NCBI GenBank assembly: GCA_030704615.1
Contig: CM060733.1
Coordinates: 44,020,001-44,084,000, forward strand
DNA: 64,000 nucleotides
Direction of reading: 5' to 3'
Source of the DNA: Takakia lepidozioides
Taxonomy: Eukaryota; Plantae; Bryophyta
Below the pieces are notes generated by a model. That model saw only the letters and a program-made list of their open reading frames with translations. It did no database searches and was not told the origin of the DNA. Position numbers and translations under genes: made by a program. Positions 9,293 to 36,673 of this stretch are shown piece after piece. Every line of letters begins with the position of its first letter. The first letter of the stretch is position 1.

Positions 9293-9376
9293 CTTGTTCG
9301 CGGTTGATGCAACCTGGCAGAGATGCCGTGTGTAGACTATGTTCATATTGAAATAGAATCTCAACTTGGGTTCACA

Positions 9377-13433: not shown

Positions 13434-13869
13434 GTGAAGCCCGACCTATCCGACAGAGACCATCCCCCGGATGGAAATTCGCCGCCGAATTTCCATCCGG
13501 GCCCCCTCAAAGGAAGTCCGGTCGGGTGGTGAGGCCCAAAACTGGACGATATAAAAACCTCCCAGGATGGAAAAACGGCGCCAAATTTCCGTCCGGGGCC
13601 GTTCGGATTTCCCGGGGGTTGCTATTCCATGAGCTCATGAGCGGCGAGCTCATGAGCTCATGAGCGGGCATGGCTCACCCATGAGCCGCAAAGTAACACA
13701 CTTCGAATTTCGGCAGATTTTTTTCGGGCCCAAAACTATAAAATAATCAAAAATCGAAGATTTCCGCGCTCATGCTGGAAGCACTCCGCTCATGAGGACC
13801 AGTGTACGCTCATGACTTGGAGCCCAGGCTCATGGACCGCTAGGCCAGGTCATAGAAAAACTGAATTCT

Positions 13870-14335: not shown

Positions 14336-14448
14336 GGAGAGCAAATACCCGCCTTACGGTAAGGGAGGCCTTGCTCTCATTTTGCTCTTCACTCTTCTCT
14401 GTTGTGCCCATCTCCTCCCTGCTTTGAGTTTGTGCTATGTCGTGAGGC

Positions 14449-15000
14449 ATGTCGTGCCCGAATCACATCTATCGACGCCAGACGGGAGTCATTTTCCCGA
14501 AAGCACACGACATCATTGTTTTCCTGGATGTTTACAGGGACGATCCTCGACTTGTCCAGCTGAGAGCAATGGAGTTTCTTCCAGGATTGCACGATTCTCC
14601 TGGACCCCGGCTGGGGAGCAGGTGGTTCCTACGCATCATGGACCTGGACTTTCCGCATGAGTGGGAGCCGAACAGATCACGCACAGCGTTGCTGTATCGC
14701 TGGAATTGTTGCGAGTGGACGTATGATGAGTGCATAGGTGAAAACTTTACGCGTGGACGGACTGGCTCGGAAAGTGGGGACATTCTCTTCAGTTATGAGG
14801 ATGAGGAGGAGGGGAACACAGGGCCCACTGTGAAAATGTCCTTCTACCAAGGGGGAGCTATCGATAAACACGACATCCTCGTTAGTTTCAACCGGGCGAC
14901 AGAAACCACTGACATTCTGTTCAAATATAGGCACCCGGTCACTCAGGAGGTCCTTGAGAGGCCAGTTAGAGTTCCTTCTTCTTGGGCGAGGGGACCATAG
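14449..15000 (+). CDS. Hypothetical 183-aa protein carried inside the MULE
   Basis: Uninterrupted ATG-to-stop ORF with globular-looking composition; no family recognised. Confidence 0.45.
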   Translation: MSCPNHIYRRQTGVIFPKAHDIIVFLDVYRDDPRLVQLRAMEFLPGLHDSPGPRLGSRWFLRIMDLDFPHEWEPNRSRTALLYRWNCCEWTYDECIGENFTRGRTGSESGDILFSYEDEEEGNTGPTVKMSFYQGGAIDKHDILVSFNRATETTDILFKYRHPVTQEVLERPVRVPSSWARGP

Positions 15001-15682
15001 GTCTTGCATGCTAGAGTAGACATGTTTCGACTCGTCGACACTCATGGCACATACATTTTCATTCAGAAATCAAGCAGCTTCCCTGTGCCATATGGGGAAT
15101 ATACATGCTTGGATAATCTTCTGTTAAGGTTTTTTGCAATTCACTGCCAGTATGCTGGGACGTGTCCTTTGTCGTATGGATTGCTGTTTGCACAAGGTGC
15201 AGTATGCAAATGCTGGAATGTGCAGTAGGACCCTTCCCACTGGGACACAGAACTAGCAATCTTGTAAAGGCATCACATTTGCAGAACAGTAACAATGTAT
15301 TTGTAGCAAATTGGAGTCTTCTCATAAAGGTGGACAAAAACGCCAGGATGGGCTGCGAAATCACTACAAATTGAATGAAGAGCAGTAACAAGGAAGCACT
15401 ATGCAGTACATAGACCATAAACGGCGCTAAAATAGGCCTCAATGCCCGTTAATCTCCACACAATGTATGCTTTACTCGGATCCATTTGTAGACAACCAAA
15501 ATAAAAAAACATGCGCATGCCATTTATGGCCAAAAACCACATTCTCATGTATTGCGGCACCAAAATTCACATGTAGCCATGGCGATGCGGCACCACCAAG
15601 TGTATAATTCATCACAAAAAAATAGGGTGCAAGAAGATGAATGTAATATAATTGCCACTTTCTCCTTCCCGAATGTGGAATG

Positions 15683-16102
15683 TCAAGCAGTCCGACCAGT
15701 GTCCTGCCGTAGGGCCTTGTGCAGCTCGTTGAAACTCAGTGTTGGAGCATGGATGAAGACGTCCACTGCGGATATGCAACTCATGCGCTTCAGAAAAATG
15801 TAATAAAGGTGTTTGCAGGGGACGTATGCTGCATTCTTCGATTCCATAACAAGGAAGTCCTCACAGTTGCAAGCTGGGTACTGTGAAACCATGATTGTAT
15901 ACACGACACTGCGCGCAGCAGACCCGGCTGTTGACAACTGAAATATGCGCCCCATCCCGGGGTGAGGAACATCCCTGCAACCTTGCACTATGCAGGGCAT
16001 TGCAAGAGCGTTGGCCATCCTGGTGTCGTTCGCCTTTGTTGGTGGCCGCCGTCTTTTCAGTTTCCCCCACCGATGGGTGGGCCAAGCTGCGGGGTCACCC
16101 AC
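15683..16102 (-). pseudogene. SWIM-finger C-terminal remnant of MULE transposase
   Basis: PTHRWGK..RRRPP...YTIMVSQYPACNCEDF...YVPCKHLYYIF is homologous to 111-1115. The upstream DDE part is missing. Confidence 0.8.
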
Positions 16103-16469
16103 CGGTATGCGGGGCGAAGAGCTTCTCGTGGGAGGAGGATGACGACTGGGAATTGGATTTCGTGGAACGTATTTTAGCTTTCAGAGAATCAGGATGGAAG
16201 TACACGTTTACCCAAACACGGGAGTCCATGTTGAAGACGGGACCTCTCGGTACGCTCCGCAGCGAAGTCCTGCAATGAGAAGAGTGTGTCCTACCTAATA
16301 ACACAAATGATTTTCTAGAGGATTCCGTATCCAACAGGATGGGTGATCGGTGCACGTAAAGATGAAGGTATGTAACGTACGTTACAAAAACGAACGACAA
16401 CAGCAAGTTCACATCGGATATTTGGTGCCTGAATTGTAATGTACAACCACTTGGGCTACAATAAATCAG

Positions 16470-18290
16470 GCCTTCCCATGAATTTCGGCACTGAAATCTG
16501 GATGAACATCTCTGTCATGTAACAGCTTTGGAAGCCAGGGGATGAATTCCGGCGACAGAAATAGTAATTTGTTCACCTCATGAAACTGACCAAGCACCCA
16601 ACGGATGGATTTCGGTGCCGAAATTCGGATGAACATCTTCTTCATCAAATTGTTTCTGCACATGAGGGTTGAATTTGGATGCCAAAATACGGATGAATGT
16701 GTTCCTGATTACAGTCGTGATTCACCACGTGTCCGGATATCGGTGCCGACATCCGAATGACAGTAATCCTGAATCGGCAAAATGGATGTATTTCGGTGCC
16801 GAAATTCATTCTTCGTCTCCTTTTCCGACCCTAATTCTGCTGCCCTGCGGATGGATTTCAGTGCCAAAATTCATCTGAAGTTTTTTTTTTTTTTTTTTTT
16901 TTCTTTGCGACAGATGAACTTCGGCGCCGAATCTCATCCAAGTACTCCCTTCTAATTTTCCTTTTTCTTCGCGAGCAATGAATTTCGGCGCCGAAATTCA
17001 TCCGAAGTCCTCCCGAATTATTTTTTTTCTCCGCGAGCAATGAATTTTGGTGCCGAAATTCATCCAAAGTCCTCCCGAAAAAAAATAAATTCTTCGCGAG
17101 CAATGAATTTCGGCGCCCAAATTCATCCGAAGTCCTCCCGAATTTTTTTTTTTTCTTCGCGAGCAATGAATTTCGGCGCCAAAACTCATCCGAAGTCCTC
17201 TCGAATTTTTTTTTTTCTTCGGGAGCAATGAATTTCGGCGCCGAAATTCATCCGAAGTCCTCCCGATTTTATTTTTTTCCTTCGCGAGCATTGAATTTCG
17301 GCGCTGAAATTCATCTGAAGTCCTCCCGAATTTTATTTTTTTTCTTCGCAAGCAATGAATGTCGGCGCCGAAATTCAACCGACTCCATCCCTTCAAATTC
17401 TTTTCAGGGTTTGAGCGCTGGATTTCGGCACCGAAATTCATCCAATGCCCTCCCTCCAATATTTATTTTTCTTTGAAATGGATGAATTTCGGCGCCGAAA
17501 TTCGTCCAAACCCGACACTTACTATTTGCTTCTAGATGATATAATTTTCGGTAAATCGTTGGAAATACCCCGTTCCGACGAAGATAACAGGAATATTCTG
17601 CATTTAATGGAGAAATCGGCATATTGAACCCCTTCTGTCAAAATTAATTGCATTTTAGCCGTTTTTTTCATTTGAAACCGACAATATCCATTAAGTGGTC
17701 TTTCTCGCACGGGACGTTGCCGCACATAAAGTATAATTTCGGCGCCGAAATTATAGTTAAATGTCCAGAAATGGCAAGTCCAACAGGCATGGACAGCATC
17801 CGTCAGGGGCAATGATGGCGGCAAAGCATAGCATGGTGCCGATTTAGTCTTCGCTCTGGATGAATTTCGGCGCCGAAATATGGATGATTTCACCTCGTCT
17901 ACGCGCGGACGGAGATATTCGTAATGTATTTCGGCGCCGAAATATGGATGAAATGTGCCCAAGTGCAGCCGTTTCCATTGTCCCGGAATTAATTCCGGCT
18001 CCGATATCCCACTGACAGGTTTGTTCATGACGAATGAGGACTTGGGAAGCGATGAATTGCGGCGCCGAAATTTGTAAGTTTGTGTACGAAAGCACTTGAA
18101 TAGGATGAATTTCGGCGCCGAAATTCATCCGTCCGCTATGAAACGTACCGATCTGACTGTTGAATGTCATAGGCAGGGGATTTTCATGGCGGTTGGGTTT
18201 CATGATGTGCGGATATTTCATTCAATGTCGGCTGCTCCGGGAACAGCATCCGGTGAACGGAAGGTATTTCGGTGCCGCAATTCGGATAAA
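16470..18290. repeat. Palindrome array GGATGAATTTCGGCGCCGAAATTCATCC; ~62-bp tandem core at 16970-17390 with poly-T linkers
   Basis: A perfect 28-bp palindrome is at ~18103-18130, with more than 20 variants across the region. Confidence 0.92.
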
Positions 18291-18790
18291 CCGTCTTGTA
18301 CTGGTGGCTGGAACTGGCACGCGTCGTGTTCCAGTCGACTTCATCTGTGCGAACGTGTCAGGGGTCACAATCTCTTCATCACCCATACGGCAGAAAGTGG
18401 TGGACGGTGGCAACGCTTCGGGAGACGTGGCTGCTTACACATCTGCTCGTGCATAGTGGTTGCATGTTCCACCGCGCTCTCTCGCTCCTTGCCCTTCTGC
18501 AGTGACATTCTCCTGCGTTTCCTCTCCTTATGCGGCATAGTGGTAGCATAGAGTTTGTGGAAGGTCAGGCGACTCCGGCAAAGAGAAGAATGACGCGGGA
18601 TTTTGGGAAGCCGCCGACGACACGACTTAAGCTCCGTCTCATGCATGAAATGCAGACCTCGTTATTTGGAGACTCGGATCGCCCACCAGTGACAGATTCG
18701 TGCTTTGCGGATGTGAAGCACTCCATACGCAATATTCCTTTTACACCTTTTTTTTGCGTGTAGTGTCTCATGTTTTCCTGTTTGTTTGAC

Positions 18791-20457
18791 ATGGGAGCTG
18801 GGGAGGGATCGCAGGGAGGCGAAGCAACACAGTCAACTTTGGATACTCCTGCCCGGGTGCTGCGCTCGCAAGGTGGAAGTGCATCAAGGCAGGTGAGTCC
18901 TCATTCAACACCTCAGATATCGCCTCAGAAAAGCCCACCTAGAGTTCGGAAGTCGAGGAAGCAGAAGGAGCCCATGGCTTCGCCAGTAAAACCCCTAGGG
19001 AGACTGGAAGCGGAGATATTGGGTTTGTAGTCAATTTCAAAAAACACGGATGCGGTGGAGGCCGCTGGAGATGTGGGAGTTGGATCTGCAGAAGGGCGGC
19101 CCATTGAGCTGACAGAAGGAGAGGACGACAACGTGGTACGACTTGGCGACGATCAGAACCTGCTGGAGCTTGCGGAGGAGCAAAACCTCCAGGACATTTC
19201 CTTCTCTGCAGACTCTTATCTTTCAGGCATTTTGCTTCGTGAAGAAACATTAGAAATTCAAATTACGTGAAACAGGAAGACTTGTTGATTCCACAGTTGA
19301 TTCCACAGTTGATCCACTGGAGTATAACGTCCTGTTCAACCATGTGGGAGAGAAGGACATTCTTTGTGATTTGTCGGGCAAGCCATGGACGTATGGCAGG
19401 ACCAGGAGTCCTGCATTCATCCCAGACGCTCATGGAAACATGTACGGATGTTGAAGGCAGGGTCCTCAACATCACTGCAAATACAGGTGAGAACGTTAAT
19501 TGAATGCGGCACCAAAATTGATACCATTTCCGTTTGTGTATGTTTGCTTGTGCGAGGAAGCGACTCATTCTTGAGTTTGGTTGTGGTTGTGTCGTATGAA
19601 TTTGCAGGTGCCTGTATGTGGGCGGGAAGGATGTCGAACCGATTTGTGTTCTCATTTGAGGGGGATACGGCCTTGTACGATTACAATTTGGCGGGCCTTC
19701 AGTGTTTGCCTCCGACTGAGGATCCCAAAAACGCAGAAGATGACGTGGAAGGGGAGGAGGAAGATGAAGAGGAGGAAGTCCAGGAAATTCGTTCGATGCA
19801 GGGGCGCCCGAAGCCGCTTCCCCCAATACCTGTCGTCGAGTGAGTTGCACCATAGTAAGTGTATTGGTTTCGGTTGTAGGGACCATGCAACCTGCCGATG
19901 ATTCCCTGTTTGAATTCTCTAATGTACTTCATTCTATGTTTGTGCGTACACTCAGCCTTGCAGAGTCGTCCGACGAGGAGAAGCTGGGAGACTTGCCCGA
20001 ATCGGACCCTGTTGCAGAGGAGGAGACAGAATCGCATCGGTCATTCTTTGCCAGAAAATCGTTTCTCGCGAGTCCCCAGAAGCCTTTTTTTCTACCAGCC
20101 TATGCAGACACGGCTGCCAGAGAAGCCATCAGGAGGGAGGATAGGCCTACTCGGTTAGAGCAATTGACATACGGGAATGAGCAGAGAATTATAATGAGGC
20201 GTGAGGCCAAACATAGAATTGTGAAAGGCAGAGTAGGGAAGTTCGTAATAGAATCCGCGTCCGAGAGCGAGGGGAATGTTGAGGACACTTCCGCACCCAG
20301 GTGGACAGTTCCGGCTGGTGAGGATGGTATTTTTGAGGGGAGGGCTTCTCAGAGTAACAGCGGTAGCGGCAGTGCAGGTTCGGAGGCAGGTGGAAGGCAG
20401 CCATCCTTGCATGAGGCCGGGGATGCATCGGACAGTGATAGCGGATCCTCACCATAG
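18791..20457 (+). pseudogene. Internally deleted cargo gene: acidic N-terminus joined to MTase-like C-terminal exons
   Basis: RSPAFIP.LMETCTDVEGRVLNITANT|G-ACMWAGRMSNRFVFSFEGD (intron 19487-19607). C-terminal RWTVPAGEDGIFE is shared with copy 2. ParB and DIPDG are absent. Confidence 0.75.
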
Positions 20458-21261
20458 CAAAGTCTCATTTGGATCCTTTTGTTGTACAGTTCTGAAACAC
20501 TTAATGAAAATATTGACGATTTGAAAAATCATTGTGTTCAGACTGCTTGTCCGATTCCCTACATTTCTTCTGCCAACCAAAATGTATAATAAAAGCAGAA
20601 GAGACGCAAACTTCAGTGAAGAACCCTACAAGTAATTTATGCACACCATCGAGCCGAGAACTTGAAGCCATGAAAACCCTGCCGTTTCTAACATTCCTAT
20701 TGGGAAATTTGGCGCCGAAATAGCCCAATGCGCGCCTTCGTTATATGGGCCTCAAAAATTCCACGGATGAATTACTGTACCAAAATATCGCGATGGAAGC
20801 CTTCAGCACAAGGCACTTCAGCACATTCCACTTGGGTATTTCGGCGCCCAAATAGCCCGTTCTGCGCCATTAAATACCGCACTATATCACATTTTAAGAG
20901 GTAATTTCGGTGCCGAAATACCCCGGTGGATGTCTTCAAAACATCATTTTAGCACACTGCTCTTGGGAATAACGGCGCCGAAATACCTCATTCCGCATCC
21001 TGGACCAGGAGAAACAGACCCTATTACCGAGGTAAGAGGACATAACACCGTCAATAAAGGCAGGAAAATTCCAATTCCGCGGATGTCCGCTCATGAGCTC
21101 ATAGGCTCATGGGCTCATGGGCTCATGCGCTCATGAAATAGTAAACCTCGGATTTCCCTCTAGCAGTCAAGGATTCCATGAAAAACGTGTCTAAAAGTGG
21201 ACTTCAGCCACAAAACTAACAGTTTAGTTTGTTTTTCTCCGAAAAACCAAGCGGCCACGCT

Positions 21262-22290
21262 CAGAATTACCTGCAGGAAGGTAATTCGGCGCTTCGACTT
21301 ACCTGGCGAATGGAAATTCGGCACCGAATTTCCATCCGCCAGCGATCCGAGTTACCTGCTGGATGGAAATTCGGCGCCGGATTTCCATCCATCCGGGCTT
21401 CGAATTACCTGCAGGAAGGTAATTCGGCGCTTCGACTTACCTGGCGAATGGAAATTCGGCACCGAATTTCCATCCGCCAGCGATCCGAGTTACCTGCTGG
21501 ATGGAAATTCGGCGCCGGATTTCCATCCATCCGGGCTTCGAATTACCTGCAGGATGGAAATTCGGCGCCGAATTTCCATCCTGATCCGCTCCGAATTACC
21601 TGCATGACGGAAATTTTGCGCGCCGCCCTACCTGCCGGATGGAAATTTGGCGCCGAATTTCCATCCATCCGCTCTCCGACCAACCTGGTGGATGGAAATC
21701 CGGCGCCGGATTTCCATCCATCCGGCCTGCGTGGCGGAAATTTCGCGCGCCGCCCTACCTGGCAGGATAGAAATCCAGCGCCGAATTTCCATCCAACCGC
21801 TCTCCGACCAACCTGGCGGATGGAAATCCGGCGCCGGATTTCCATCCATCCGCTCCGAATTACCTGCGTGGCGGAAATTTCGTGTGCCGCCCTACCTGAC
21901 AGGATGGAAATCCGGCGCCGGATTTCCATCCATCCGGCTCCGAATTACCTGCGTGGCAGAAATTTCGCGCGCCGCCCTACCTGACAGGATGGAAATCCGG
22001 CGCCGGATTTCCATCCATCCGGCTCCGGATTACCTGCGTGGCAGAAATTTCGCGCGCCGCCCTACTTGGCAGGATGGAAATTCGGCGCTGAATTTCCATC
22101 CTGCTGCGCTCTGAATTACCTGCATGACAGAAATTTTGCGCGCTGCCGTACCTGGCGGATGGAAATCCGGCGCCGGATTTCCATCCATCCGCGCTCCGAA
22201 TTACCTGCAGGATGGAAATCCGTTGCCGAAATTCTATTCTGCTGCGCTCCGAATTACCTCTATGTTAGAAATTCCGGGCCGAGTTGCGTC
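21262..22290. repeat. Palindrome array B: GGATGGAAATTCGGCGCCGAATTTCCATCC with GAATTACCTGC linkers
   Basis: A perfect 34-bp palindrome is at 21550-21583; about 15-20 full and half units, including exact higher-order duplications. Confidence 0.93.
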
Positions 22291-23354: not shown

Positions 23355-26300
23355 ATGAGGACAGCAGATCCGGCAATGGAGGTTGTTCATGCACATGCAG
23401 TAGGGCCCACCCACGCAAAGAAGAAGAAGAAAGCTAAGCACATGCAATCCCCGGCGAGAGAGCCGTCACGGGCTGCGGAGGGGGGAGTGAGTAGTGCGCG
23501 CGAGGGTGTCAGTTCGCCTCAATCAAAGGTGGTCGTCCATCCGGGCTCCCCTGCTGCTAGCCCTAGTAAGAAACAGAAAGCCCGTGAGAGGGCAAAAGAG
23601 AGGGCAAAAGAACAGGCGAGACAGCAGGCTAGCCAGGAGGAAAGAGAAAAGGCCACTGAAGAGGCCAGGGGTGCCCAAATGACAGATGCCAATGTAAGTG
23701 AGGGACGCACAGAGACGGTGGATCCCTCCAAGACACCACAAAGAGGCAGTCACACACTGGTTAGACCATCGCGGGCAAGAGCAGCCCCTGCAATTACCCA
23801 TACGGTGGAGAGTGGAGGAGAGGAAAGAACACCAGAAAGAGCACGGATTGTGCAAGTTCGAGGTGAAGCCGGGGAGAGGGCAGTAGAGACGGGGAGAGTG
23901 CTCGAGGTGGTTTCGCCGGTGGCTGACCATGTTGAGGAGGACAACAGGGAGCTTTCTGACCAGGATGACATCCTCCCGGACATCCCCAGGCCCCAAACCC
24001 GCAGCATACAGGCTGGATTTGGCGGTCCTGGTGGGCTGCCGGAGAACCCCTCTGCAGCAGACGTCATGTCAGAGGCGGATATGAAGTTGGCCGCTGCCAA
24101 GATGTTGGAGGCAACCCACAACAACATTGGCAGGGTGCTGGGGGGCATGGTGTACCCGGCCAAGCTTCGGATTCCCCTTTGCCGCTTGGTGTCATTGCAG
24201 GTGGTGAGACCTGCCCTCCCAGGCGATATCGACAAGCTGAAATTCTCTTTCCGGGATGGATATCGAATGGGGTCTGCCGCGTTTTACGTTTCCATTGAGA
24301 ACGACCACGAGCGACCCGTGCCCACACTTCCGATGAGGTGGACAAATGGGGTCCCCATTGGCAAAGGCGAAATGAGGAGTTCAAGAGAACGATTGCTACT
24401 GATCGTCTTTTCCAGCACTTGTCCAGTAAGATGTTTTACGTGTGGGACGGCAATCATCGCCTCCTGGCATGGATGGAGCACATAGCCGAAGCCCACCCCA
24501 ACGACCTCGATTGGCATTTCGCCGTGGAGTGTGTTGTGCTGAAGGTTGCGGGGCCCAAAGATCGCAGTCTTCTCAAAGCTGCAATGGCGGACATCAACTC
24601 GTAAGTTACAACGCCTCTTGCTTTTGGACCCATCCGATTGTAAGTAATTTCATTGCGAATCCTCATATTTGTTGTAAATTCCCATTTCAGAATTGTTTGA
24701 TGGAAATGTGGCATTGCAGGGTGACTGAGAATGCCTTCATTGCCACCAACTTGTCCCACATGCTCTTCCGAGTGAAGGATGTCGGGAAGCAGGGGGTGCA
24801 AGAGTTTGCCAATTCGTTCAGTGCCGACCTCTTGCGCAAGTCAGAGGCAAAGGCAGACAAAACCTGGTATAGGCTGAGCATGGACGCCATGGTGGACTAC
24901 ATATTTCGGGTAAAGCTCCTGACTGTTTTGTTGAGCTAATCTGTCTCTCCTCCCCCAATAGAAGAAAAGTGTTGAGTAGGATCTCTAATCTTATGTGCGC
25001 ATTCTTGACAGACGAAAATTCAGCAGGATTTGGCACATGCGCGGAGGTTCTACATGGAGTCAGAGGAGAAGAATCTAACCCTCCCGGCACTCGAATCGTA
25101 TCTCAAAGCTGCGGAGGTGAGGGCCCGCATAAAGTACAAGTCGCGGATGGTAAAGTACGTGGCCATAGCTGATCCCGCCCTTGGTGCCGACTTTCTGGTG
25201 GAGGTGGGGAAGCACTACTCCTGCGCTCTGAAGCCCACGATGACATTGGAGAAGCTCCATTGTCTAGCCACATCCTGTGTGGATGGTGCAGAAAAGGTGA
25301 TACATTCTTAACCAAATTGTGGTGGCAACAACTCGTTTTTGTGGTGTTTGGCGCTTACGAATATGCTGGGTGGTTGGACAGACCTAGTGGCTCCAAATCT
25401 GGAATGGTTCCCAAAGTACAAGGGACATGTGGAGCTTCCCCAAACCGGACAAACTGTCTGACCCCACATTCGACATGTGGATGAACCGCATGACATGGCG
25501 GTTTCAGGTACTTCCCCACGCTTCGTTTGGCGCTTCTACTCTTGTAGGGGGTGGATTCATTGTATTTTTTCAGCAATGCGATCTGATGGAGAATCTCCAC
25601 AGGTGACGACGAATGCGCAAGAACAGCTGGACACACAAGCACATCAGTTCAAGATGGAGATTTCTCCTGCAGCAGAGAGCCTACGCGACTATGTGACGAG
25701 GTACTTTCTGCTCTACAAAACCGACCTATTCTTTCGGGAGATACCACATGCCCGCCGGAGCCACGAGTTCACCGACCAGCCAAACGCGGACAAAGCAGCA
25801 ATGCGCCTTCTGTACAAGTACATACGCGATGCCTTCCTTTCAGTCCTTGCATTTTTTCGCCGAATTTCCAGATCAGGGCTCCGAAAATGGCTAAGTCCCT
25901 AGGGTGGCTGGCCCTGAACTGGAAATTCGGCGCCATTTTTCCAGTTCCGGGCCTATTGCCATTCTGGGACTTAGCCATTTTCGGGCCGGACCTGGGAAAA
26001 TGGCGCCGAATTTCCAGTCAGGGCTCCGAAAATGGCTAAGTCCCTAGGGTGGCTGGCCCTGAACTGGAAATTCGGCGCCATTTTTCCAGTTCTGGGCCCT
26101 ATTGCCGTTCAGGGACATAGCCATTTTCGGGCCGGACCTGGGAAAATGGCGCCGAATTTCCAGTCAGGGCTCCGAAAATGGCTAAGTCCCTAGGGTGGCT
26201 GGCCCTGAACTGGAAATTCGGCGCCATTTTTCCAGTTCTAGGCCCTATTGCCGTTCTGGGACTTAGCCATCTTCGGGCCAAACCGGGAAAAATGGCGCCG

Positions 26301-27294
26301 AATTTCCAATTCAGGGCTCCCAAGATGGCTAAGTCCCTAGGGTGGCAATCACCGAAAACCGAAATTCGGCGCCATTTTTCCATTTCTAGGCCTACTCAGA
26401 TCCGCCCCAACCTGGGAAAATGGTGCCGAATTTGCAGTTCAGGGACCTCATTGTGTTTTTCATGAATGCAGGTACTGCAAGTTCTCCCTTTGGGAGAAAG
26501 GTCATTTGTCTTTCGAGCCACCATTCTTCCTGGCATGGAGGAACCCTGGGGCTGACTCCATGTACACTGACGATATTGTGAAGGAGTGGCATCTAGAACA
26601 TTTGCGTGATTGCCCTTGGTATGTGGACCTTCCGCCCGGCTCGCTCGACCCATCCGAGTTTCAATTGAAGCTGGATGCTGAGGCCCGACGAAACCGGGCT
26701 CCGCTGCCTTCGCTGGGTGCAAAAGAGGCAAAAGCGCTTGCGAACTCCAGGAAAGCGGCAAAGCTTGCTCAGGCAGGAATTCAGGAGAAATTGAATGAGA
26801 AGAGTAAAGGCCAAAGGAAAAGGACAAGGAAACAGGTGAGTGCGGTAACACCCAAAAAACAGAAAACCATCGGGGCATCGGAGGAGGCGCAGGAGGGGAC
26901 CCAAGAGAGTGACTCGGACGACGACTTTGTTCAAGGTCCTGCGACTGCTATTGCTGCTACCCTGTCACCGATCGTTCGGGTTCCCAAGTCAGTTCAGAGT
27001 GGGACTGGCTCTGCCAAGAAGTTGGCATTTGAGAGCGAGCCTACACGGCAGTATTCGGCGGTGACGTTTACGCACAGGCCAAAGCTAGAACCTCCAACCA
27101 TCATCCAATGCGTCAATGAGAGCTTCCTTGACGCTCTCGCTGCCAGGGCAAAGAAGATGGCACACAACAAGTCTCTGGCGGAGCAGAAGGGGAAAGCCAA
27201 GAAGAGGGCTGCTGGTACAGAGCCTAAAGACACCCCTGGTTTTGAAGCCATGATGGAATTCTTCACGGCTGTGAGCACAGATTGCAAGAGCACT

Positions 27295-27327
<33 letters not shown>

Positions 27328-28840
27328 GGAGAGAGCTTGCGACATGATTCTCCTCGACATTCCAGATGGGGAGCTGCTGGAGGGCCTGGATGGTGTGCCC
27401 ACCTGGAACAGGTTTACTGAGGACTACTGGAAAGCCGGGTTTGGGCTGGCGGGGATGCTTCTAGATGACGGTGGATGTGTGGTTGTCCTTGCCACAAGAG
27501 GGAGGACCACAGAGAATGCGGTGGCAAGGTAGACACCAAAAAGTGTCACCCCGTTCCTCCTCAGAAAATGGTTCTGCATCAATACACAGGGGTTGCGAAC
27601 AGAGGGCCAAAGTGTAAGTTATCAATCTATTGCATTCACCTCATATTGTGGTGTATCTAAACAAGATCCCGGAGTTGATCCCTCTTTTGTTGGATGTGCA
27701 GACATTGGTGTTTGAGGCATATTGCTTTGTGAAGAGAGGGTCTACGTTCAAATTCCGCAACGACGGTCGTCTTGTTGATGCCGCTGTGGACCCTGTTACC
27801 TACGATGTCCTCTACAACTATGTGCCCCACTCCAGTATGCCGAAGGACACAAAGACATGCAAACCGTGGCGGTACAGCCGGACCCGGAGCCCTGCTTTCA
27901 TCCAAACCCTCATGGAGACGTGCTCGGATGTCCAAGGGCGGATTCTAGACCTCACATGTGGCATGGGTAAGCCTTCACGTGCTCAGTTTGTCCCCTGGCC
28001 CGATTGCAATTGCATACCGCAAGCTATTAACCGCCCGCTTTGTTCCTCAGGTGCTTCAATGTGGGCAGGGACGTTGTCCGACAGGCATGTGTTTGCCTTC
28101 GAGCCACATACTGCCCTCCACAACTCGGAACTTGCAGCGGCTGAACGTCTGCTGAAAGAGGAAGAGGCATCCTCGAAGGATGAGGAAAAATCGAGAAGGA
28201 GCAGGGGGAGGAACAAGTTGGGATCGAGGCCGAGGAGCCCCCGGTGTACGAGTGAGTGGTCGCATTGTAAATTGCCTCCAGATTTCGTGAGGCATCTCCC
28301 TTCGCTCTCTTATTTCATTGAAAACCCTTTCTGCTTCTGCTGGTATTGACATTCTTGAAGTGGATTTGTTCTTACTGTAGGATGCGAAGTACGGCAGGAG
28401 GGACGTCTACACCGGAGTTCATGGGCAGGAGGAACGTGCCTTTTTTTGCCAGGGGGGATTTCATGCCTAGTCCAGAAAGGGACTACATCCTTCCTACTTA
28501 TGCTGCCCGGCTTGCTTCGGTGTCCATTAGGAGGTGTTCCGAACCTAGTCGTGTACAACAGATTTTAGACGAGGCAAGCCTCAAGAAAATGAAGATGAGG
28601 GAGGAGGCAGCAGCTATTAGAGCCCGTCGGGCTCGTAGATTTGTCTTGGATTCTGCTGAGCAAAGTGGGGGAGAAGAGGCAGAAGATTCCCAGGAGGTGA
28701 GGTGGACAGTCCCCCAAGGAGAGGACGGCATTTTTGAGAGGCATACTGCAACCGATGCATCACAGAGCTCGGAGGATGGGGGGGATGAGGGGGATGAGGA
28801 AGAAGGAGGGCCAAGTTCCTCGGAAGGTGTAGGAGAGTAG
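23355..28840 (+). pseudogene. Cargo gene copy 2 (best preserved): ParB/Srx-like domain, helical middle region, beta-class DNA amino-methyltransferase-like domain; multi-exon, at least two frameshifts
   Basis: DGNHR at 24446-24460; DMILLDIPDG at 27341-27370; RILDLTCGM|GASMWAG...RHVFAFE. GT-AG introns include 24601-24719, 24910-25011, 25818-26471 and 27967-28050. Frameshifts near 24315 and at poly-G 27296-27326. Confidence 0.82.
25855..26440. repeat. Intronic ~146-bp fold-back repeat with two oppositely oriented GGAAATTCGGCGCC cores per unit
   Basis: Units start at 25874, 26019, 26165 and 26312. Internal inverted pair CCGAAAATGGCTAAGTCCC / GGGACTTAGCCATTTTCGG. Confidence 0.92.
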
Positions 28841-28989: not shown

Positions 28990-29050
28990 GCCCGCTCATG
29001 CTTTTTTTTTTCCCGCTCATGCTCATGCCGCTCATGAAATAGCAGCCCCC
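28990..29050. repeat. MULE right TIR
   Basis: GCTCATG repeats end in GCTCATGAAATAGCAGCCCCC, near the reverse complement of the 13614 terminus. Confidence 0.85.
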
Positions 29051-29640
29051 GAAATGGGACTTCATAAGGAATGGGTTCGCAGGCAGTCAGTGAGTGATGA
29101 AGGGGGTATCTCCACTGAAGTCCCTGTTCTTGATTTGGAGCATGCAGAACAGATTGCTACACAGGCCGCTGACGCTGTAGCCCAAGTGGTCCCTGCCGTT
29201 GTGGGTGTACCAAAACGCAAATCACGAAAAAGAAAAGGTGTGGATGTCAATGCAAGTGTGGCCCCCAATGCAGGTGTGGCTTCTATTGCTGGTCCTATTG
29301 GTAATTCTTCACATCCTTCAAATCAGTTGGTTGTAGTGCCTGCACCTACTACTCGAGGAAACAAGCCAAAGGCAGGCGAACATCCTTACAGTGCAGTGTC
29401 ATTTTCTGGTGGTGCACCTAGCATGTATCGCATGAAGATCATGCCTACTCATTTCATTGATATGGTGGAGGCCTCAAGTACATCTCCTGATGCGACCTTG
29501 AAAGAACTCATGGAGTTCTTCAAAAATGTGAGTTTCCCCCAACAAACAAACTTGAATGTAAGGAATTCTTCGATGTTTTTATATCCTCATCATCCGGCTA
29601 TTGACTCCTACATTTTTTGTATGTTGTTTGCAGTTGCCAG
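29051..29640 (+). pseudogene. Fragment of a further divergent cargo-gene copy (region preceding the MTase domain)
   Basis: HPYSAVSF...LKELMEFFKNV aligns with PYHAVEH...IVEFLGTV (copy 1) and QYSAVTF...MMEFFTAV (copy 2). Confidence 0.6.
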
Positions 29641-31789
29641 GAAAGGAGGAAGCTACTGCAGCCCGCACACACCCTCGACCTTCTAGCATGGGTCCTCCTG
29701 TCGGGCCTAACCTTGTGCGCTTCAAGGACGTGCTTTGGAAAGGTAAAGGTTTCAAGTCGAAAGCAGCAGAGAAAGAGGCAATTTGACGATGAAGATGATG
29801 GAGAGTCGCCAACATGGGTCGTCCCCTTCTCCAAAAAATTAAAGAGCATGAAGCATCAGGCGGTTGTTGAGGAATATACTACCCCATCGGATCAGTCCCC
29901 TTCCCCTACGAAGAGCAGACGGGGCGGTGGAGAATCGGACGAGAACGGAGGAGTCCCCTTCCCTTGCAAAGAATAAGAAGCAGAAGGGGGCGAAAGCAAG
30001 GGCAGAGCAGTCTCCAGCAAAACCCCTCCACATGTTGAAGCTCAGTTCTTGCAGGAGTTTTAGAAGGAAACCGGGGGCAACTCTGCAGAAGCTCGGACAG
30101 CTGCTCCGACGATGATCTCTAGCACTCCTGTCCTGGTCGATCTTTCAGCGGATGAAGGTGTTGGTTCTTAACATGGGGAGCTCGACTTCTCCTACCTAGA
30201 ATAGGACTTTCGTGATAATAGGGGAGGTATGGACGACTACATTCTCCCACATGATCTGCCCGGCTACATTCCCAAGAATACAGGCACGGCTCTGGGTGGT
30301 CCATCTGAACAGCCCCTTCCCCCACCCCAAAATGTCGTCCAAGAGGATTTTCAGAGTGCAGAGAATCAAATGTTGGAGGAGACTCACAGCAGCATTGGCA
30401 GAGTTCTTAGGACCAAGGTCTTCCCTTGCACACTGCGAATTCCACTCTGTCGAATGGTCTCCCTCCTGATAGTGAGGCTTGCTCTCGCAAGGGATGTGGA
30501 TAAGATGAAGTTCGCATTCCAAGAAGGCTATTGGCTGGGTCTGCCGCCTTCTATGTTTCCATTGAGAATGAGGAAGGTGGATCGCATGCCCGACAACAGA
30601 AGAGTTACAGCCTAGGGTCCCCACTACCACACTCGCAACACGGAATTCAAAAAAATGCTGAAGGATGATGGCGGTGTTTGGTGGCCAGCCAAAATCCCCT
30701 CTAACCCCTCTTACTATGAAAGCTGTGAAAACTGGCTCAGCAAAGAAGACACTCTTCAACCTCCCGGGGGGGCACCCGTGCGAGCTAGTGGAAATGAAGG
30801 GCAGGAGCCAAAGTTGGAGCCAAAAAAGTGATTCAGTGTGCGAATGAGAGTTTTTTGAGGGCATTGGATGGCCGGCCGGCCGCCAAGTTAGCACACACAT
30901 CAAGCAAATGGAAGGCCTGAAAGCCAAAGCTCTAAGGAAGCGACTGCAGAAGAGCCTGTAGACACTCCAAGATTGTAGCCACGATGGATTTCTTTGCAAT
31001 GACAAGTGAGGGAAGAATTGCATGAGGCGTGGAAAAACGGACCGACTGTCATTGATTTGATCATCTTGGATATTCCCAGATGGAGAGCCTCTGGAGGACT
31101 GGATATTGTGCCCTCTTGGAGCAAGTATTTCTGAGGACTTTTGGAAAGAAAGGGTTTGGGCTAGCCTGCATGGTATTGGATGACAAAGGTTGTGTGGTGG
31201 TCATTGCCAGCAAAGGCAAAAACACAGAGGCGGGATTGCCAAGTGGACCCGTAAGAGTGGCGTCCCAATTCTGAAGAAGATGTGGACCTGCATCAACTCA
31301 ATGGGCCTGGAATGCGGTGCCAAATTTTGCTTATGAATGGGGTCCATTGGATTTCGGCGGCACGGCATCCTTGCAAAGGAATTGCGGACGATGCTACACG
31401 AACAGTATTTCAGCACTCAGGAGACTATGTATGGAGATGAGAATGAGTTTGCAGACATTGCCCTTCATTGCTTATAATCCACAAGATATTTGATTTCCCC
31501 CCTTACAGGGACTTGCACGGATGAAGATTGCGGCTCTATGAATGGAGCCGTTTTCAGTTTCCATCTGTGCCATGGAAACCATGCGCCGCTTTTCTCATCG
31601 GACTGTACGTACCCAGTGGAAATAAGGTGCCGCAATTGCTTTCACGGATCCTATGACCGCGGATAAGTACCCTATTCCCTGTGGACAATCATTTCTGAAA
31701 AATTACTGGCTCATGATTTTTTCGGCAGTTACGAGTCTGCTCATGGCTCATGCCGCTCATGGCTCATGGCTCATGAAATAGCAGCCCCC
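29640..31789 (+). mobile_element. Degenerate MULE right arm: deleted ParB-MTase-like gene plus TIR
   Basis: LRIPLCRMVSLLIVRLAL at ~30430; IDLIILDIP(fs)DGE at 31051-31087; VLDDKGCVVVIA; TIR ...GCTCATGAAATAGCAGCCCCC ends at 31789. Confidence 0.75.
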
Positions 31790-33160
31790 TCTCGGGGGTA
31801 GAGGCCGACACCTGCCCGCCAGAGAACGACCCCCGGATGGAATTCGGTGCCAAATTTCCATCCAGGCCCGTAGGATGAAGTCGTCCGGGGTGGTGAGGCC
31901 CGACACATGGCCGCGAGAGAATATCCCCCGGTGGAAAAAACGGCGACGAATTTCCATCCGAGGCCCGTTCGATGAAGTCGTCTCGGGGGGAGAGGCCGAC
32001 ACCTAGCCGACTGAGATCATCCCCCGGATGGAAATTCGGCGCCGTTTTTCCATCCAGGGCCCGTTAGATGAAGTCATCTCGGGAGGGGGCCGACACCTGG
32101 CCGACTGAGATCATCCCCCCGGATGGATGAAATTCGGCGCCGTTTTTCCATCCGAGCCGGCCCGATGAAGTCGTCCTCGGGGGTAGAGGCCGAAACCTGG
32201 CCGACTGATATCATCCCCCGGATGGAATTCGGCGCGTTTTCCCATCCGAGCTGGCCGGATGAAGTCGTCTCGGGGGTAGAGGCCGACACCTGGCCGACTG
32301 AGACCTCCACCGGATGGAAATTCGGCGCCGTTTTTTCCATCCGAGCCGCCGCCCATGTCTTCAAGCATCATTGACTCCCGAAGGATATTGTCTCAGACCG
32401 CGATCCAAAGTGACAAGTAAATTTTGGAGGGCCTTTGGAAGAAAATGGGGACGAGGCTCAAGATGAGCACCGCCGGATGTCGTCCTCGTGGGGAGAGGCC
32501 GACACCTAGCCGACAGAGAACATCCCCCGGATGGAAATTCGGAGCCGAATTTCCATCCGAGGCCCGTTGGATGAAGTCGTCTCGGGGGGGGGAGAGGCCG
32601 ACACGTGGCCGCCAGAGAACATCCCCGGATGGATAAACGGCGCCAAATTTCCATCCGAGGGCCGTTGGTTGAAGTCGTCTCGGGGGGAGAGGCCGACACC
32701 TGGCCGACAGAGAACATCCCCCGGATGGAAATTCGGCGCCGAATTTCCATCCGAGGCCCGTTGGATGGAAGATGTCTCGGGGGGAGAGGGCCGACACATG
32801 GCTGCCAGAGAGAACATTCCCCCGATGGAAAAACGGCGCCAAATTTCCATCGGAGGCCCGTTGGATGAAGTCGCTCGGGGGAGAGGCTAAACACCTGGCC
32901 GACTGAGATCATCCCCCGGATGGAAATTCGGCGCCGTTTTTCCATCCGAGCCGGCGGGATGAAGTCGTCTCGGGGGTAGAGGCCGACACCTGGCCGACTG
33001 AGGATCTCCACCCCCGGATGGAAATTCGGCGCCGTTTTTCCATCCGAGCCGGCCGGCCGGATGAAGCGTCTCGGGGGTAGAGGCCGACACCTGGCCGACT
33101 GAGATCGTCCCCCGGATGGAAATTCGGCGCCGAATTTCCATCGGAGGCCCGTTGAATGAA
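31790..33160. repeat. Palindrome array A (~96-bp unit) with CGGATGGAAATTCGGCGCCGAATTTCCATCCG core
   Basis: About 13 units with linker GATGAAGTCGTCTCGGGGGTAGAGGCCGACACCTGGCCGAC. Related units are at 13440-13604. Confidence 0.92.
32350..32474 (+). other. ~125-bp Gypsy integrase fragment embedded in array A
   Basis: Reads VFKHH.LPKDIVSDRDPK..KFWRA.WKKMGTRLKMSTA; homologous to the reverse complement of ~39130-39255. Confidence 0.8.
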
Positions 33161-33344
33161 GCCCATATCGGCACTTCTTCAACATTTAGTCGTTGCATCA
33201 AGTTTTTCGCGTTTTTTTGTCTGGTTACACACTAAACTTGGAGTTTTTTGCCTACAGGCCACATTTGGCACATTATTCCCCACCATTCTGGTCCGCTAAG
33301 ACAAATTCGTTGCCGGTTTTTCCATCGATGAGGTGGACCAAATT

Positions 33345-33965
33345 TCCTGCAGGATGGAAATTCGGCGCCGGTTTCCCATCCGGCTCCTCTCCGTGTTATC
33401 TGTGGGTGAAATTCGGCGCGGATTTCCATCCGGCCGCGCTCCGAATTACCTCTGGGATGGAAATTCGGGCCGTTTTTTCCATCCGGCCGCGCTCCGAATT
33501 TTCCTGCGGATGGAAAATTGGGCCGGATTTCCATCCGGCTCCTGCGCTCCGAATTACCTGCAGGATGGAAATTCGGCGCCGGTTTTTCCATCCGGCAGCG
33601 CTCCGAATTGACTGGCGGATGGAAATTTGGCGCCGGATTTCCATCCGGCCGCGCTCCGAATTACCTGCAGGATGGAAATTCTGCGCCGGTTTTCCATCCG
33701 GGCCGCGCTTCGATTGAACTTGGCGGATGGAAATTTGGCGCCGGATTTCCATCCGGCTGCGCTCCGAATTACCTCTGGATGGAAATTCGGCACCGGATTT
33801 CCATCCGGCCGCGCCCCGAATTACCTGCAGGATGGAAATGCAGCGCCGGTGTTTTCATCCGGCGTCTCCTGGATGAGAACGGCTCGGGCGGAGTGGAGGG
33901 ATGGCCTCGTTGCGTTATTCTTCATCCGCTGGATGGAAATTTGGCTCCGATTTTTTCCATCTAGC
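33345..33965. repeat. Palindrome array B, second copy (~50-55-bp units)
   Basis: Repeats of GCGCTCCGAATTACCTGCAGGATGGAAATTCGGCGCCGG, same type as 21262-22290. Confidence 0.9.
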
Positions 33966-35205
33966 CGGCGATTGGCGAAGTCTCAGGGGGGAGGGTGGGC
34001 GTCTGTGACCGACCTCCATACCTACGACATTTAATGGCACAGTTGGGCATTAAATGTCCTCCGCCGTCGGTTTTGAACCGGGGCTGGCGACACAGGGATT
34101 CCGTGTTTGCTTCCCGGATACGCCTTGGAAACCTGATGCTAAACTTGGATTAACTTCTATTCGAGGCATGTATGCACACATATTGCGGGATCTTTTTTCT
34201 TTTGTTGGGACTTATGCCGCGTGGAGAAGGGCATGGCTCTCCTGAGAGAAACCCCACATCCAGACCGCAGCGGAAGCTGAAGGCTTTGTACTACGGGCGA
34301 CATCCAACCTCTCGCATGGCCAAACTTAAGCTACAGTAGGAAATTCCATTGTCTTGCTCACAGCCCGCGCCAACTGAAGCCGAGCACTCTCAGGTTCCGG
34401 CCCTTCCTCTTTCTATTTTTTTGTTTTTTTTTTTTGTTGTTTTCGCATCTTCTTGCCTGCAGCCCTGGAAGCGCATGGTTGGCATCGCAAAAGCACGAGT
34501 TGTTGAGAAGAATGATCAAGGTCAGAGTGGTTAGAAAGGAGCCAGGTCGTTGCTGCATTCAGATTTGCAACAGGGTGCACAACTTGCTGTAGATAACAGG
34601 TTGCATCTCGGAATTAAGGAAATCCATGCTGAGCTGAGAAGATTGTCTAAGCAGATGAAGTGCCTTCAAAATATTTCACCCTAATTCCCGTCTCATGGAA
34701 TTCGTGTTCATGTTGATTTCTAACAGGTTACCGGGTTTAGTGAACCTAAAATAGTTTGCAATGCGTGTGCAAAGCGGGCAGCTCTGGGAGAAGGCTGCTT
34801 GTTGCATGTCATTCTTAGGCATTGCTTGGATTTGTTTTTCATTGTTGTTCCATGCCACTCCATACTTGGTTTTGTTTTTGTTTTCATTGTTGTTCCACGA
34901 TTGTTGCGATGGTGGTGTTGCTGCTCGTTGCGACGGTGGTTTTCATTCCGATGTTGGTTCTCACGAATTTTGGGGTTGACAGAGTGACGACGAGCCGACA
35001 CGCTGGTGGTATTATCGACAGCTCCAACTGCTCGAGCAGTGACTCCGAAAGCCGCACCTCATCGCATGTTTGGATCGCCCAACTTGGGCGGGAGGGGCAA
35101 ACTAAAACCTTTTGTTGGTGGACGGGAGGACCTGCAGCAAGCGAGAGTATGACAGAATAGGCATGGGGAGTTGGTGTAGGCGGCATGGCAGGTGAAGGGC
35201 GTCGG

Positions 35206-36673
35206 ATGAGGACAGCAGATCCGACAATGGAGGATGTTGATGCAAGCAGTAGGGCCAGCCCACGCAAAGAAGAAGAAGGAAAGCCAAGCACATGCAATCC
35301 CCGGCGAGAGAGCCGTCACGGCTGCGGAGGGGGGGAGTGAGCAGGGCGCGCGAGCGAGGGTGTCAGTTCACCTCAATCAAAGGTGGTCATCCTAGAGGCC
35401 TCCCCTGCTGCTACCCTAGTAAGAAATAGAAGGCCCGTGAGAGGGCAAAAAGAAGAACAGGCGAGACAGAAGGCTAGCCAGGAGCCAGAGAAAAGAGGAA
35501 AAAGGCCACTGAAGAGGCCAGGGTTGTCGAAATGACAGATGCCCATGTAAGCGAGGGACGCACACAGACGGTGGATCCCTCCAAGACACCACAAAGAGGC
35601 AGTAACACACCGGTTACACCATCGTGGGCAAGAGCAGCCCCCGCAATTACCCATACGGTGGAGACTGGAGGAGGTGAAAGAACACCACAAATTGCACGGA
35701 CTGGTGCAAGTTCGAGGTTGAAGCGACAGAGGCAGAGGGAGAGGGTAGTAGAGTACGGAGAGAGTGCTCCAGGTGTTCCGCCGGAGGATGACCATGTTGA
35801 GGACGACGAGAGGGAGCTTGCTGACAGGATGACATCCTCCCGGAGATCCCCAGGGCCCCAAACCCGGAGCATACAGGCTGGATTTGGTGGTCCAGGTGGG
35901 CTGCCGGAGAACCCCTTTGCAGCAGGACGCCATGTCGGGGCGGATTATGATATGTTGGCCACTGCCAGATGTTGGAGGCAACCCACAGCAACATTGGCAG
36001 GGTCCTGGGGGGGCATGGTGTACCCGGCCAAGCTTCCGATTCCCCTTTGCCGCTTGGTTTCATTGCAGGTGGTGAGACCTGCCCTCCCAGGCAATATCGA
36101 CAAGCTGAAATTCTCTTTCCGGGAGGGATATCGAATGGGGCTGCCGCGTTTTCGTTTCCATGGAGAATGACCACGGAGCTTCTTGTGCCCCACTTCCGAT
36201 GAGGTGGACAAAATGGGGTCCCCATGGGCAAAGGCGAAATGAGGAGTTCGAGAGATTGATTGCTAGTGATCCTCTTTTCCAGCACTTCTCTGGAAAGATG
36301 TTTTACGTGTGGGACGGCAATCATCGCCTCCTGGCATGGATGGAGTACATAGCCCAAGCCCACCCCAACGACCTGGATGGCAATTTCGTTCGTGGTGGAG
36401 TGTGTTGTGCCCAAGGTTGCGGGGCCCAAAGATCACAGTCTTCTCAAAGCGGCAATGGCAGACATCAACTCATAAGTTACAATGCTTCTTGCTTTGGACT
36501 TTGAATTGAAACAGTCATTTCATTGCCATCGTATTATTTGTTGCAAATTTCTCAATTCTGTATTGTTTAAATGGAAATGTGGCATGTGTGGGTGACTGAG
36601 AATGCCTTCATTGCCACCAACTTGTCCCATATGCTATTCCGAGTGAAGGATGTCGGGAAACAGGGGGTGCAAG
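35206..36673 (+). pseudogene. Cargo gene copy 3 (5' part with ParB-like domain), interrupted by an LTR retrotransposon
   Basis: Close paralog of 23355-24790 with many indels; DGNHR at 36313-36327. Confidence 0.85.

Follow-up and report, generated by a model that had tools for sequence, protein, structure and literature searches.

The closest published system to the locus described here is that of the red-algal Plavaka DNA transposons, which carry the accessory genes PAG2, pairing a PF01555 methylase with a SET domain, and PAG3, pairing a ParB-like domain with a 2-oxoglutarate (2OG) oxygenase (10.1101/2025.02.11.637652). That account also reports PAG homologues on Chondrus Mutator elements and presents self-targeting by PAG proteins as a proposal. 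Here, we analyse a 64,000-nucleotide stretch of the genome of the moss Takakia lepidozioides (assembly GCA_030704615.1, contig CM060733.1, positions 44,020,001 to 44,084,000; hereafter the window), in which the gene at 23355-28840 is the accessory, or cargo, gene of a highly repeated Mutator-like plant transposon, broken in this main copy. Common to this element and the Plavaka PAGs are a DNA-transposon cargo, a ParB-like domain, with 7BNR as the best Protein Data Bank (PDB) entry in both, and a PF01555 methylase; PAG3, as described, likewise has tandem inverted repeats beside its ParB gene. Compared by description, PAG2 and PAG3 are separate genes, whereas in the window ParB and PF01555 parts form one predicted polypeptide, on a land-plant Mutator element and with a motif IV that lacks its aromatic residue. 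A liverwort relative of the window protein, P0156, gave no SET or oxygenase Pfam match.

The VANDAL elements of Arabidopsis, with their anti-silencing protein VANC, resemble the window element in three ways: both belong to the Mutator superfamily, both carry an accessory gene, and in both, family-specific motifs have multiplied as tandem repeats within introns and elsewhere in non-coding DNA. The motifs of VANC all point the same way in their arrays, and the paper does not use the word palindrome (PMC5735166). The window cargo differs from VANC in its predicted ParB and methylase folds, and neither the window pieces nor P0156 matched a VANC-linked Pfam family. The same domain pair, in the same order, occurs in prokaryotic and phage fusions of a ParB fold with N6/N4 methyltransferases, as far as their published descriptions go (10.1101/2025.10.10.680097; PMC4738411); unlike these, the cargo has introns, a long helical middle, a transposon location, a non-aromatic motif IV and no close phage relative by tblastn. 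Prokaryote-derived amino-methylases are known in eukaryotes (PMC10406627; 10.1101/2021.02.12.428880; PMC12344493), and M.BceJIV, CcrM, M.MboIIA, M.PvuII, M.RsrI, rotifer N4CMT and Marchantia MpDN4MT1 are described with a permuted order and fold like those of the cargo (PMC10406627; 10.1101/2021.02.12.428880). By these descriptions, the named enzymes have DPPY or SPPY/F and are active, unlike the cargo with its DIPD; N4CMT and MpDN4MT1 are host genes, and the Marchantia paper does not mention ParB (10.1101/2021.02.12.428880). In searches of open-licence papers, no fusion of this kind turned up that is spliced, sits on a land-plant Mutator element and has a degenerate motif IV.

With the ParB, Noc and KorB clamps the cargo protein shares the predicted N-terminal fold, equivalents of the Box I Arg, the Box II GxxR and the Box III Asn, a helical region next to them and palindromic candidate sites. 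It departs from them in its GNHR for GERR, in about 45 inserted residues and in its C-terminal methylase, and no ParA partner was seen. Sulfiredoxin is the main form in which eukaryotes are known to carry the ParB fold.

The cargo gene and its product

The cargo gene has the following features.

23355..28840, plus strand: spliced cargo gene, nine predicted exons, about 1,390 codons; a pseudogene in the main copy
23355-24600, 24720-24909, 25012-25296 and 25382-25507, plus strand: exons 1-4
~25574-25840, 26472-27613, 27702-27966, 28051-~28253 and ~28382-28840, plus strand: exons 5-9; the limits of exon 5 and of the final intron are uncertain
24072..24600, plus strand: predicted ParB-type nucleotide-binding domain with VR, GY, WDGNHR and a terminal N; a frameshift near 24308 in the main copy
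24165-24212, 24443-24472 and 24524-24541: N-terminal motifs LRIPLCRLVSLQVVRP, WDGNHRLLAW and VECVVL
24720..26930, plus strand: helical middle region, exons 2-6a, a candidate DNA-binding and dimerisation part
27100..28160, plus strand: circularly permuted (beta-class) amino-methyltransferase fold, predicted from models and the sequence of relatives
27356..27370, plus strand: motif IV variant D-I-P-D-G; the preceding strand starts at 27341
27458-27487, 27885-27926, 27936-27965 and 28083-28103: C-terminal motifs LLDDGGCVVV, RSPAFIQTLMETCS, GRILDLTCGM and RHVFAFE
27967..28050, plus strand: phase-1 intron within motif I (DLTCGMG), from X8 splicing and sequence

The first-pass annotation of this stretch had described an intron-containing gene for a ParB/Srx and methyltransferase fusion, and the motifs that it quoted could all be located by coordinate in the main copy. 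The methylase exons are spliced: one contig of run X8, a run taken as RNA by guess only, lacks precisely the two predicted methylase introns (27614-27701 and 27966/7-28049/50), and another begins at the acceptor after the repeat-bearing intron. The intron within motif I, said to be conserved in three copies, does begin at 27967, 2286 and 19487 in the three. What the annotation left unmentioned is that the main copy is a pseudogene with two frameshifts and two stops: a frameshift near 24308, a stop at 25385-25387, a 31-nt G run at 27296-27326 with a frame change, and a stop at 27530-27532. Three of these four breaks (24308, 25385 and 27530) are absent from other copies in public runs. The 24308 site has an extra base in contigs of all four runs compared, bases 25385-25386 are changed in all depth of public-run copies, and 27531 reads G instead of A in 11,073 of 11,111 depth units. 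At the G run, where the alignment skips the repeat, one spanning contig carries 16 gap letters, which would keep the frame, and another carries 15 over a longer span; the frame is thus probably intact in other copies. Each of the five cargo copies in the window is either broken or deleted. The high repetition of the element shows in run X2, where 22,287 of the 3,038,600 contigs align to the 5.6-kb gene, a figure that is not a copy number.

Annotated gene models in a liverwort and a fern support the view that ParB and methylase parts belong to one polypeptide. In P0156 (Riccia, 1,207 aa) and in P0183 (Adiantum, 1,282 aa), a single annotated chain contains the ParB-like, the helical and the methylase part and matches the window gene collinearly, and on contig L001 the ParB and methylase parts lie 3.4 kb apart in the order of the window gene. 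No contig bridging the two parts was seen among the run contigs aligned to the gene. Of 11 window exon pieces compared with a profile built on 15 relatives, seven matched in order (independent E-values, iE, 6e-32 to 6e-6; best reversed piece iE 0.13), and the other four, from exons 4, 5, 8 and 9, gave no score. Exons 2, 3 and 6a match the family profile, and the model of the relative P0111 is all-helical across the middle region.

Named relatives, from 30 proteins looked up, come from Riccia sorocarpa, Adiantum nelumboides, A. capillus-veneris and Ceratodon purpureus. The N-terminal-domain profile matched 958 clusters at 50% identity (E up to 0.001), and most of the at least 150 matches listed end at one shared intron. 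Loci L001-L008, which are short or decayed, showed no palindrome arrays and no transposase match. Other searches returned little: Pfam gave no relevant match at E up to 1 for 16 window pieces, a word search with the C-terminal methylase piece found 0 of 917 candidates, PDB sequence searches gave nothing significant, PHROGs and NCBIfam yielded methylase families only and no ParB family, the viral contigs searched held no relative, and the ESM Atlas search with the ParB piece gave no usable match. Phage tblastn produced weak motif-I matches only (48 records; 3 records), the best at E 0.004 over 17% of the query.

The ParB-type N-terminal domain

Both folds are predicted from models of relatives. 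For the ParB part we used the model of P0111, built on 62 rows, whose predicted local distance difference test (pLDDT) score exceeds 90 through most of residues 160-310. The ten best Foldseek rows were all ParB or Noc proteins, none below E 0.07, and a Foldseek-independent search placed KorB (Z 8.1), PadC (7.2), Pnob8 ParB (6.7) and sulfiredoxin (6.1) among its first five. Realignment to ParB CTPases (enzymes that hydrolyse cytidine triphosphate, CTP) gave VIA Z values of 9.2-9.4, with Myxococcus xanthus ParB (7bnr, Z 9.2) superposing at a root-mean-square deviation (rmsd) of 2.3 Å over 95 residues. These Z values are modest, yet the top rows agree on one superfamily, and the ParB/Srx-type assignment of the first-pass annotation is supported, with ParB the better fit of the two. 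In sulfiredoxin, the catalytic Cys sits in a GCHR motif. Sulfiredoxin identity was rejected, as GNHR lacks this Cys and the fold match is weaker (Z 6.1 vs 9.2-9.4).

With residue roles mapped by motif and offset rather than by residue-level superposition, the ParB-type box residues are largely kept among the relatives: R189 in 51/59 rows, the Box II GxxR pair G273 and R276 in 56/61 and 51/61, and N322 in 53/59. Published work assigns phosphate-binding roles to such Arg, Arg and Asn residues and a hydrolytic role to the Glu of GERR, E93 in MxParB (PMC13229309). The corresponding position is Asn in 60 of 61 rows, so that the family reads GNHR and not the canonical GERR. The N-terminal domain is thus likely nucleotide-binding. 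As reported in a survey of ParB folds, nucleotide preference is unpredictable from sequence or models, and bacterial methyltransferase fusions bound ATP (10.1101/2025.10.10.680097). The CTP switch that had been suggested for the cargo protein is unproven and lacks specific support: the positions for binding phosphate are retained, but Asn stands in the place of the hydrolytic Glu, and the sequence does not reveal which nucleotide is chosen.

The methylase domain and its motif IV

In the cargo sequence, motif IV precedes motif I, the beta-class order of a permuted Rossmann fold, as first proposed. The methylase was modelled through the DIPDG relative P0171 (24 rows). Its 11 best VIA rows were all beta-class N6A/N4C enzymes at Z 9.8-12.5, and the next row dropped to 7.2; the best had Z 12.5, with an rmsd of 3.8 Å over 193 aligned residues. 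Foldseek likewise matched the model to beta-class enzymes, at E 8e-6. The models of the two relatives support a ParB-type and a beta-class fold, as earlier proposed. P0156 matched PF01555 at E 5e-5, below the curated cut-off, and the ESM Atlas neighbours of the methylase domain were mostly phage PF01555 clusters. Full domains retain motif I for binding S-adenosylmethionine (SAM) as variants of DPFxGxG (DLTCGMG, DLSVGTG, DFAGGWG or EFGCGSA), with a conserved E or D on the next strand.

Motif IV itself departs from the catalytic consensus [DNSH]PP[YFW], which is described as ending in an aromatic residue (PMC4738411): the window subfamily has DIPD. Two phage methylases carry DIPY and DLPY, so only the loss of the aromatic at position 4 is unusual, and what had been called a non-canonical DIPD motif reduces to one substitution, Y/F to D. 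According to published descriptions, the motif IV aromatic stacks on the flipped base (PMC10406627, PMC4738411), and a Y-to-G change inactivates a DPPY enzyme (PMC3036652). The motif lies at 27356-27370, and 27341, given earlier as its position, is the start of the preceding strand. It is in frame in the main copy; in the other two copies in which it had been reported, a 1-nt frameshift within a run of C has to be crossed to read it (near 2963, one C fewer; near 31075, one more). DIPDG is fixed in the window subfamily, with no substitution listed at 1% or above in run X1, nor in the spliced X8 contig, and it recurs in a 63-member cluster of relatives.

Among 205 stored proteins, 24 match the pattern strand-D-x-P-x-G; they are redundant and fall into about five clades. 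Position 4 is D in 7, N in 1, T in 8, S in 1, I in 1 and F in 6, and is thus non-aromatic in 18 of 24. The loss of the aromatic, presented earlier as conserved, is common to several clades but is not family-wide, one fern clade keeping Phe. Two Adiantum nelumboides proteins, P0161 and P0147, have Phe at position 2 of the motif (DFPT, DFPI) and not at position 4, and a compensating aromatic is conceivable there. A 15-row tree with phage rows recovers the Phe clade with support of 99/97 as sister to the DFPT/DFPI proteins (100/99). It cannot separate several losses of Phe from one regain, because both the DIPD group (81/94) and the phage root (84/85) are weakly supported.

The methylase fold is under purifying selection. 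Between window copies, the ratio of non-synonymous to synonymous differences per site (pN/pS) in the methylase was 0.38, 0.25 and 0.49 (bootstrap upper limits 0.61, 0.36 and 0.63), and in the ParB part 0.31 and 0.44, against 0.86-1.28 in shifted-frame controls (0.86-1.20 for the methylase fold); synonymous sites are near saturation in some pairs, so that raw pN/pS overstates the ratio. Simple decay of the methylase fold is thereby excluded. The C-terminal tail after the methylase (28382-28840; 20044-20457) has a pN/pS of 0.35 and ends in a conserved 'FVLD/FVID..E', also seen in Riccia and fern relatives, which may be a short interaction motif.

Palindromes in non-coding element DNA

An 18-bp palindrome, AAATTCGGCGCCGAATTT, occurs in 52 copies at up to three mismatches, all 52 in non-coding element DNA. 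It was absent from the listed coding segments, from some 25 kb of long terminal repeat (LTR) element and from every one of 20 Markov simulations. The arrays sit between the divergent transposase and cargo genes, and further copies lie in a cargo intron.

25858..26392, no strand: 146-bp tandem repeat in a cargo intron, five palindrome copies
21258..22285, no strand: 53/85-bp tandem array upstream of the cargo gene, 13 palindrome copies
13434..13613, no strand: 95-bp-type palindrome array of the main element, separated from 21159 onwards by a nested insertion

Perfect palindromes of up to 34 bp around GGCGCC occur in the array at 21258-22285. In sibling A, a diverged sibling element in the window with 36% identity to the main copy in its methylase piece, the main palindrome is missing and a different one of its own occurs 14 times (7499-9290, 116-bp period). 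CpG observed/expected is 1.06-1.31 in the arrays, 0.32-0.40 in LTR elements and 0.44-0.64 in cargo copies; retention of CpG in the arrays fits protection from 5-methylcytosine (5mC). Across the 52 palindrome copies, which are not independent, the central CpG shows C to T in 4 of 104 half-sites and the outer CpG in 13 of 104.

Anatomy of the transposon and its surroundings

The window is eukaryotic repeat DNA, with nested DNA-transposon pieces to about 36.7 kb and Ty3/gypsy LTR elements beyond. Bacterial contamination was rejected on the strength of introns, splicing and nesting with LTR elements.

2050..12040, minus strand: diverged sibling element A; cargo gene on the minus strand, with methylase at 2070-2998 and ParB at 6873-7424
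10683-12040, plus strand: transposase remnant of sibling A
12047..13445, minus strand: N-terminal transposase remnant with a GCM-like zinc domain, divergent from the cargo gene
13614..21149, no strand: nested 7.5-kb deletion derivative of the same family, with terminal inverted repeats and a 9-bp target duplication
15683-16330, minus strand: SWIM end of a transposase within the nested element
16851-17510: 63-bp palindrome array within the nested element
~18700-20457, plus strand: deleted cargo gene within the nested element
28990..29051, no strand: right-hand end of the main element, directly beyond the main gene, with GCTCATG subterminal repeats and a terminal inverted repeat
30340..31790, plus strand: copy D, internally deleted ParB and methylase pieces, then a right terminus (31790)
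31791..36673, plus strand: copy E, with palindrome arrays of 95-bp and of 53-bp type (19 copies), a promoter region and a ParB part
49300..51640, plus strand: most complete transposase copy, with a GCM-like domain, D (50389-50415), D (50596-50619), CGFH (50689) and E in NIAESVH (51067-51087)

Mutator-like elements (MULEs) have terminal inverted repeats, frequently accompanied by subterminal tandem repeats. They are described as making target-site duplications of 8-9 bp (PMC5225508). The nested member is flanked by the perfect 9-bp duplication GGATTTCCC (13605-13613 and 21150-21158); the left end of the main copy is lost. A terminal inverted repeat of about 20 bp with CATGAGC subterminal repeats stands at 13614 and 21149, and a matching end recurs at 1961, 29051 and 31790; inverted repeats of this length are short for the superfamily. 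Within the nested member, the SWIM transposase end and the deleted cargo gene are divergent with a palindrome array between them.

Available accounts give Mutator transposases a DDE core, an N-terminal zinc finger and a C-terminal SWIM domain (PMC1702500, PMC5225508). Patterns read by eye in the window transposase comprise a GCM-like N-terminus, a D..D..CxxH..E core and SWIM (CxC..CxH); the C-terminal continuation with SWIM of the type at 49300-51640 is seen at 1-1110 and is followed by the family terminus at 1961. The D..D..CGFH..E and CxC..CxH patterns resemble those of a Mutator-type transposase; Pfam gave no transposase match at E up to 1 in window pieces. A Sola-type assignment was rejected, given the 9-bp duplication and SWIM. 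The remnant at 12047-13445, which is split by a solo LTR (12185-12915) and cut short at about 12047, probably belongs to the main copy, judging by its position. At 12040-12047, two oppositely oriented truncated transposase remnants are joined head to head, a junction that shows where DNA between sibling A and the main element was deleted. Copy E is 85% identical to the main copy and is cut by an LTR element. The LTRs at 12185-12915 and 36674-37399 are two copies of one LTR, 89% identical, each inside a member of the transposon family.

Members of the family insert in or abut other members' arrays: the 7.5-kb element lies in a 95-bp array, and the end of copy D (31790) adjoins the array of copy E, hinting at targeting of the family's own arrays. 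Inside a 95-bp array, a 125-bp gypsy integrase piece (32350-32474; 84% to 39131-39259, reversed) with CCGCC on both sides resembles repair filler or a captured spacer. Further open frames include a 184-codon frame near the left end of the nested element (14446-15000, plus strand), possibly a third element gene, which had no match in Pfam or in loci L001-L008. Frames upstream of copy D (28859-30100, plus strand) had no Pfam match and may be N-terminal exons of copy D or another cargo gene. The region 40292-64000 contains two related gypsy elements whose gag-side open frames are long (53323-56781), with an extra 232-codon frame at 52550-53248 that has no Pfam match.

Discussion

We tentatively favour, at a little under even confidence, a cargo protein that docks on its own palindromes and shields the element from silencing as a non-catalytic or very weakly active SAM- and DNA-binder. 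The methylase fold is likely non-catalytic or very weak because the base-stacking aromatic is absent. The helical region would read the family-specific palindrome as ParB reads parS, and the ParB domain would bind some nucleotide, perhaps enabling loading of the protein and its spreading along the element. The methylase fold would bind SAM and DNA and keep host 5mC methylases off; its ancestor was presumably a self-targeting amino-methylase with activity, which the fern D-x-P-F members may have retained. The divergent transposase and cargo promoters would thereby stay usable, and silencing would be countered in the manner of VANC; the distinct palindromes of the main family and sibling A form a VANC-like pattern, as that system is described (PMC5735166).

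Several points weigh against this shielding role. With a mean pLDDT of 53, the model of the methylase is weak, and the two fold models represent relatives, not the window protein. No helix-turn-helix was demonstrated: some ParB, KorB and Noc alignments reach into the helical region at an rmsd of 6-7 Å, and extended alignments were obtained only at 6-11 Å. The high CpG of the arrays can equally be explained by motif selection or recent tandem amplification. Phe at position 4 is kept in 6 of 24 matches (one fern clade, all Adiantum nelumboides), and Asp1, Pro3 and Gly5 of motif IV are kept in 24 of 24, in a pattern that demanded D, P and G and that decayed motifs would escape. The persistence of Asp4 across rows that share only about 36% identity is more in keeping with a maintained pocket than with drift.

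The kept D-x-P-x-G and SAM motifs and the purifying selection would also suit an active self-targeting DNA amino-methylase, writing N6-methyladenine or N4-methylcytosine, in which ParB loading at palindromes offsets the missing aromatic or another residue or a partner subunit does the stacking. We regard this as a serious but distinctly less probable account. The fern DVPF/DLPF members resemble the phage DIPY/DLPY enzymes, beta-class enzymes are described as acting in task-dividing dimers (PMC10406627), and red-algal PAG2 has been interpreted as an adenine methylase (10.1101/2025.02.11.637652). Replacing the aromatic, however, reduced or abolished activity in the tested enzymes described (PMC3036652); Asp is unable to stack on a base, and position 4 tolerates D, N, T, S and I. 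The earlier annotation had posed altered chemistry against a dead module, which is still the right pair of options; simple decay is excluded by the purifying selection. Changed chemistry, with Asp4 selected for another SAM-dependent reaction (at another base position, on a protein or RNA amine, or a non-methyl transfer), strikes us as unlikely. Asp4 is fixed in a high-copy subfamily and common to three lineages about 36% identical or less, and the fold and SAM motifs are kept; yet other clades have T, S or I at this position, as relaxed constraint predicts, and no precedent was found in the parts of the literature consulted. We give similarly low credence to a combined version in which a nucleotide-gated ParB clamp loads at parS-like palindromes and spreads the methylase fold, its DIPD site rewired to a new SAM chemistry that would leave a transposon-written, so far undescribed mark on the DNA or chromatin of these plants.

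The fold match to KorB, the best of the wide search (Z 8.1), the arrays between divergent genes and the short terminal repeats are what would be expected if the protein served transposition or inheritance directly, a ParB-like clamp at internal palindromes pairing the terminal repeats, recruiting transposase or regulating the divergent promoters as KorB-type proteins do. Such a role leaves the selected methylase fold unexplained, and Mutator transposases are reported to be able to act alone (PMC5225508); we consider it improbable, slightly more so than changed chemistry. That the gene is a functionless captured relic carried by the transposon might be read from the window, where five of five copies are broken or deleted, but pN/pS well below 1 in both domains already largely refutes this. 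Three of the four breaks are absent from other copies, spliced RNA-like contigs exist, 958 clusters match the ParB profile, and liverwort and fern share the architecture, leaving the relic very improbable.

If the self-targeting account is true, ParB-plus-palindrome self-targeting, so far proposed for red-algal transposons, would reach mosses, liverworts and ferns in fused form. A sequence-addressed ParB clamp acting on the chromatin of plants would be without precedent in biology and might serve for targeting. The natural variants at position 4 (F vs D, T, S or I) make mark-writing and DNA-occupying defence directly testable against each other, and the fern Phe members are candidates for a land-plant DNA adenine methylase.

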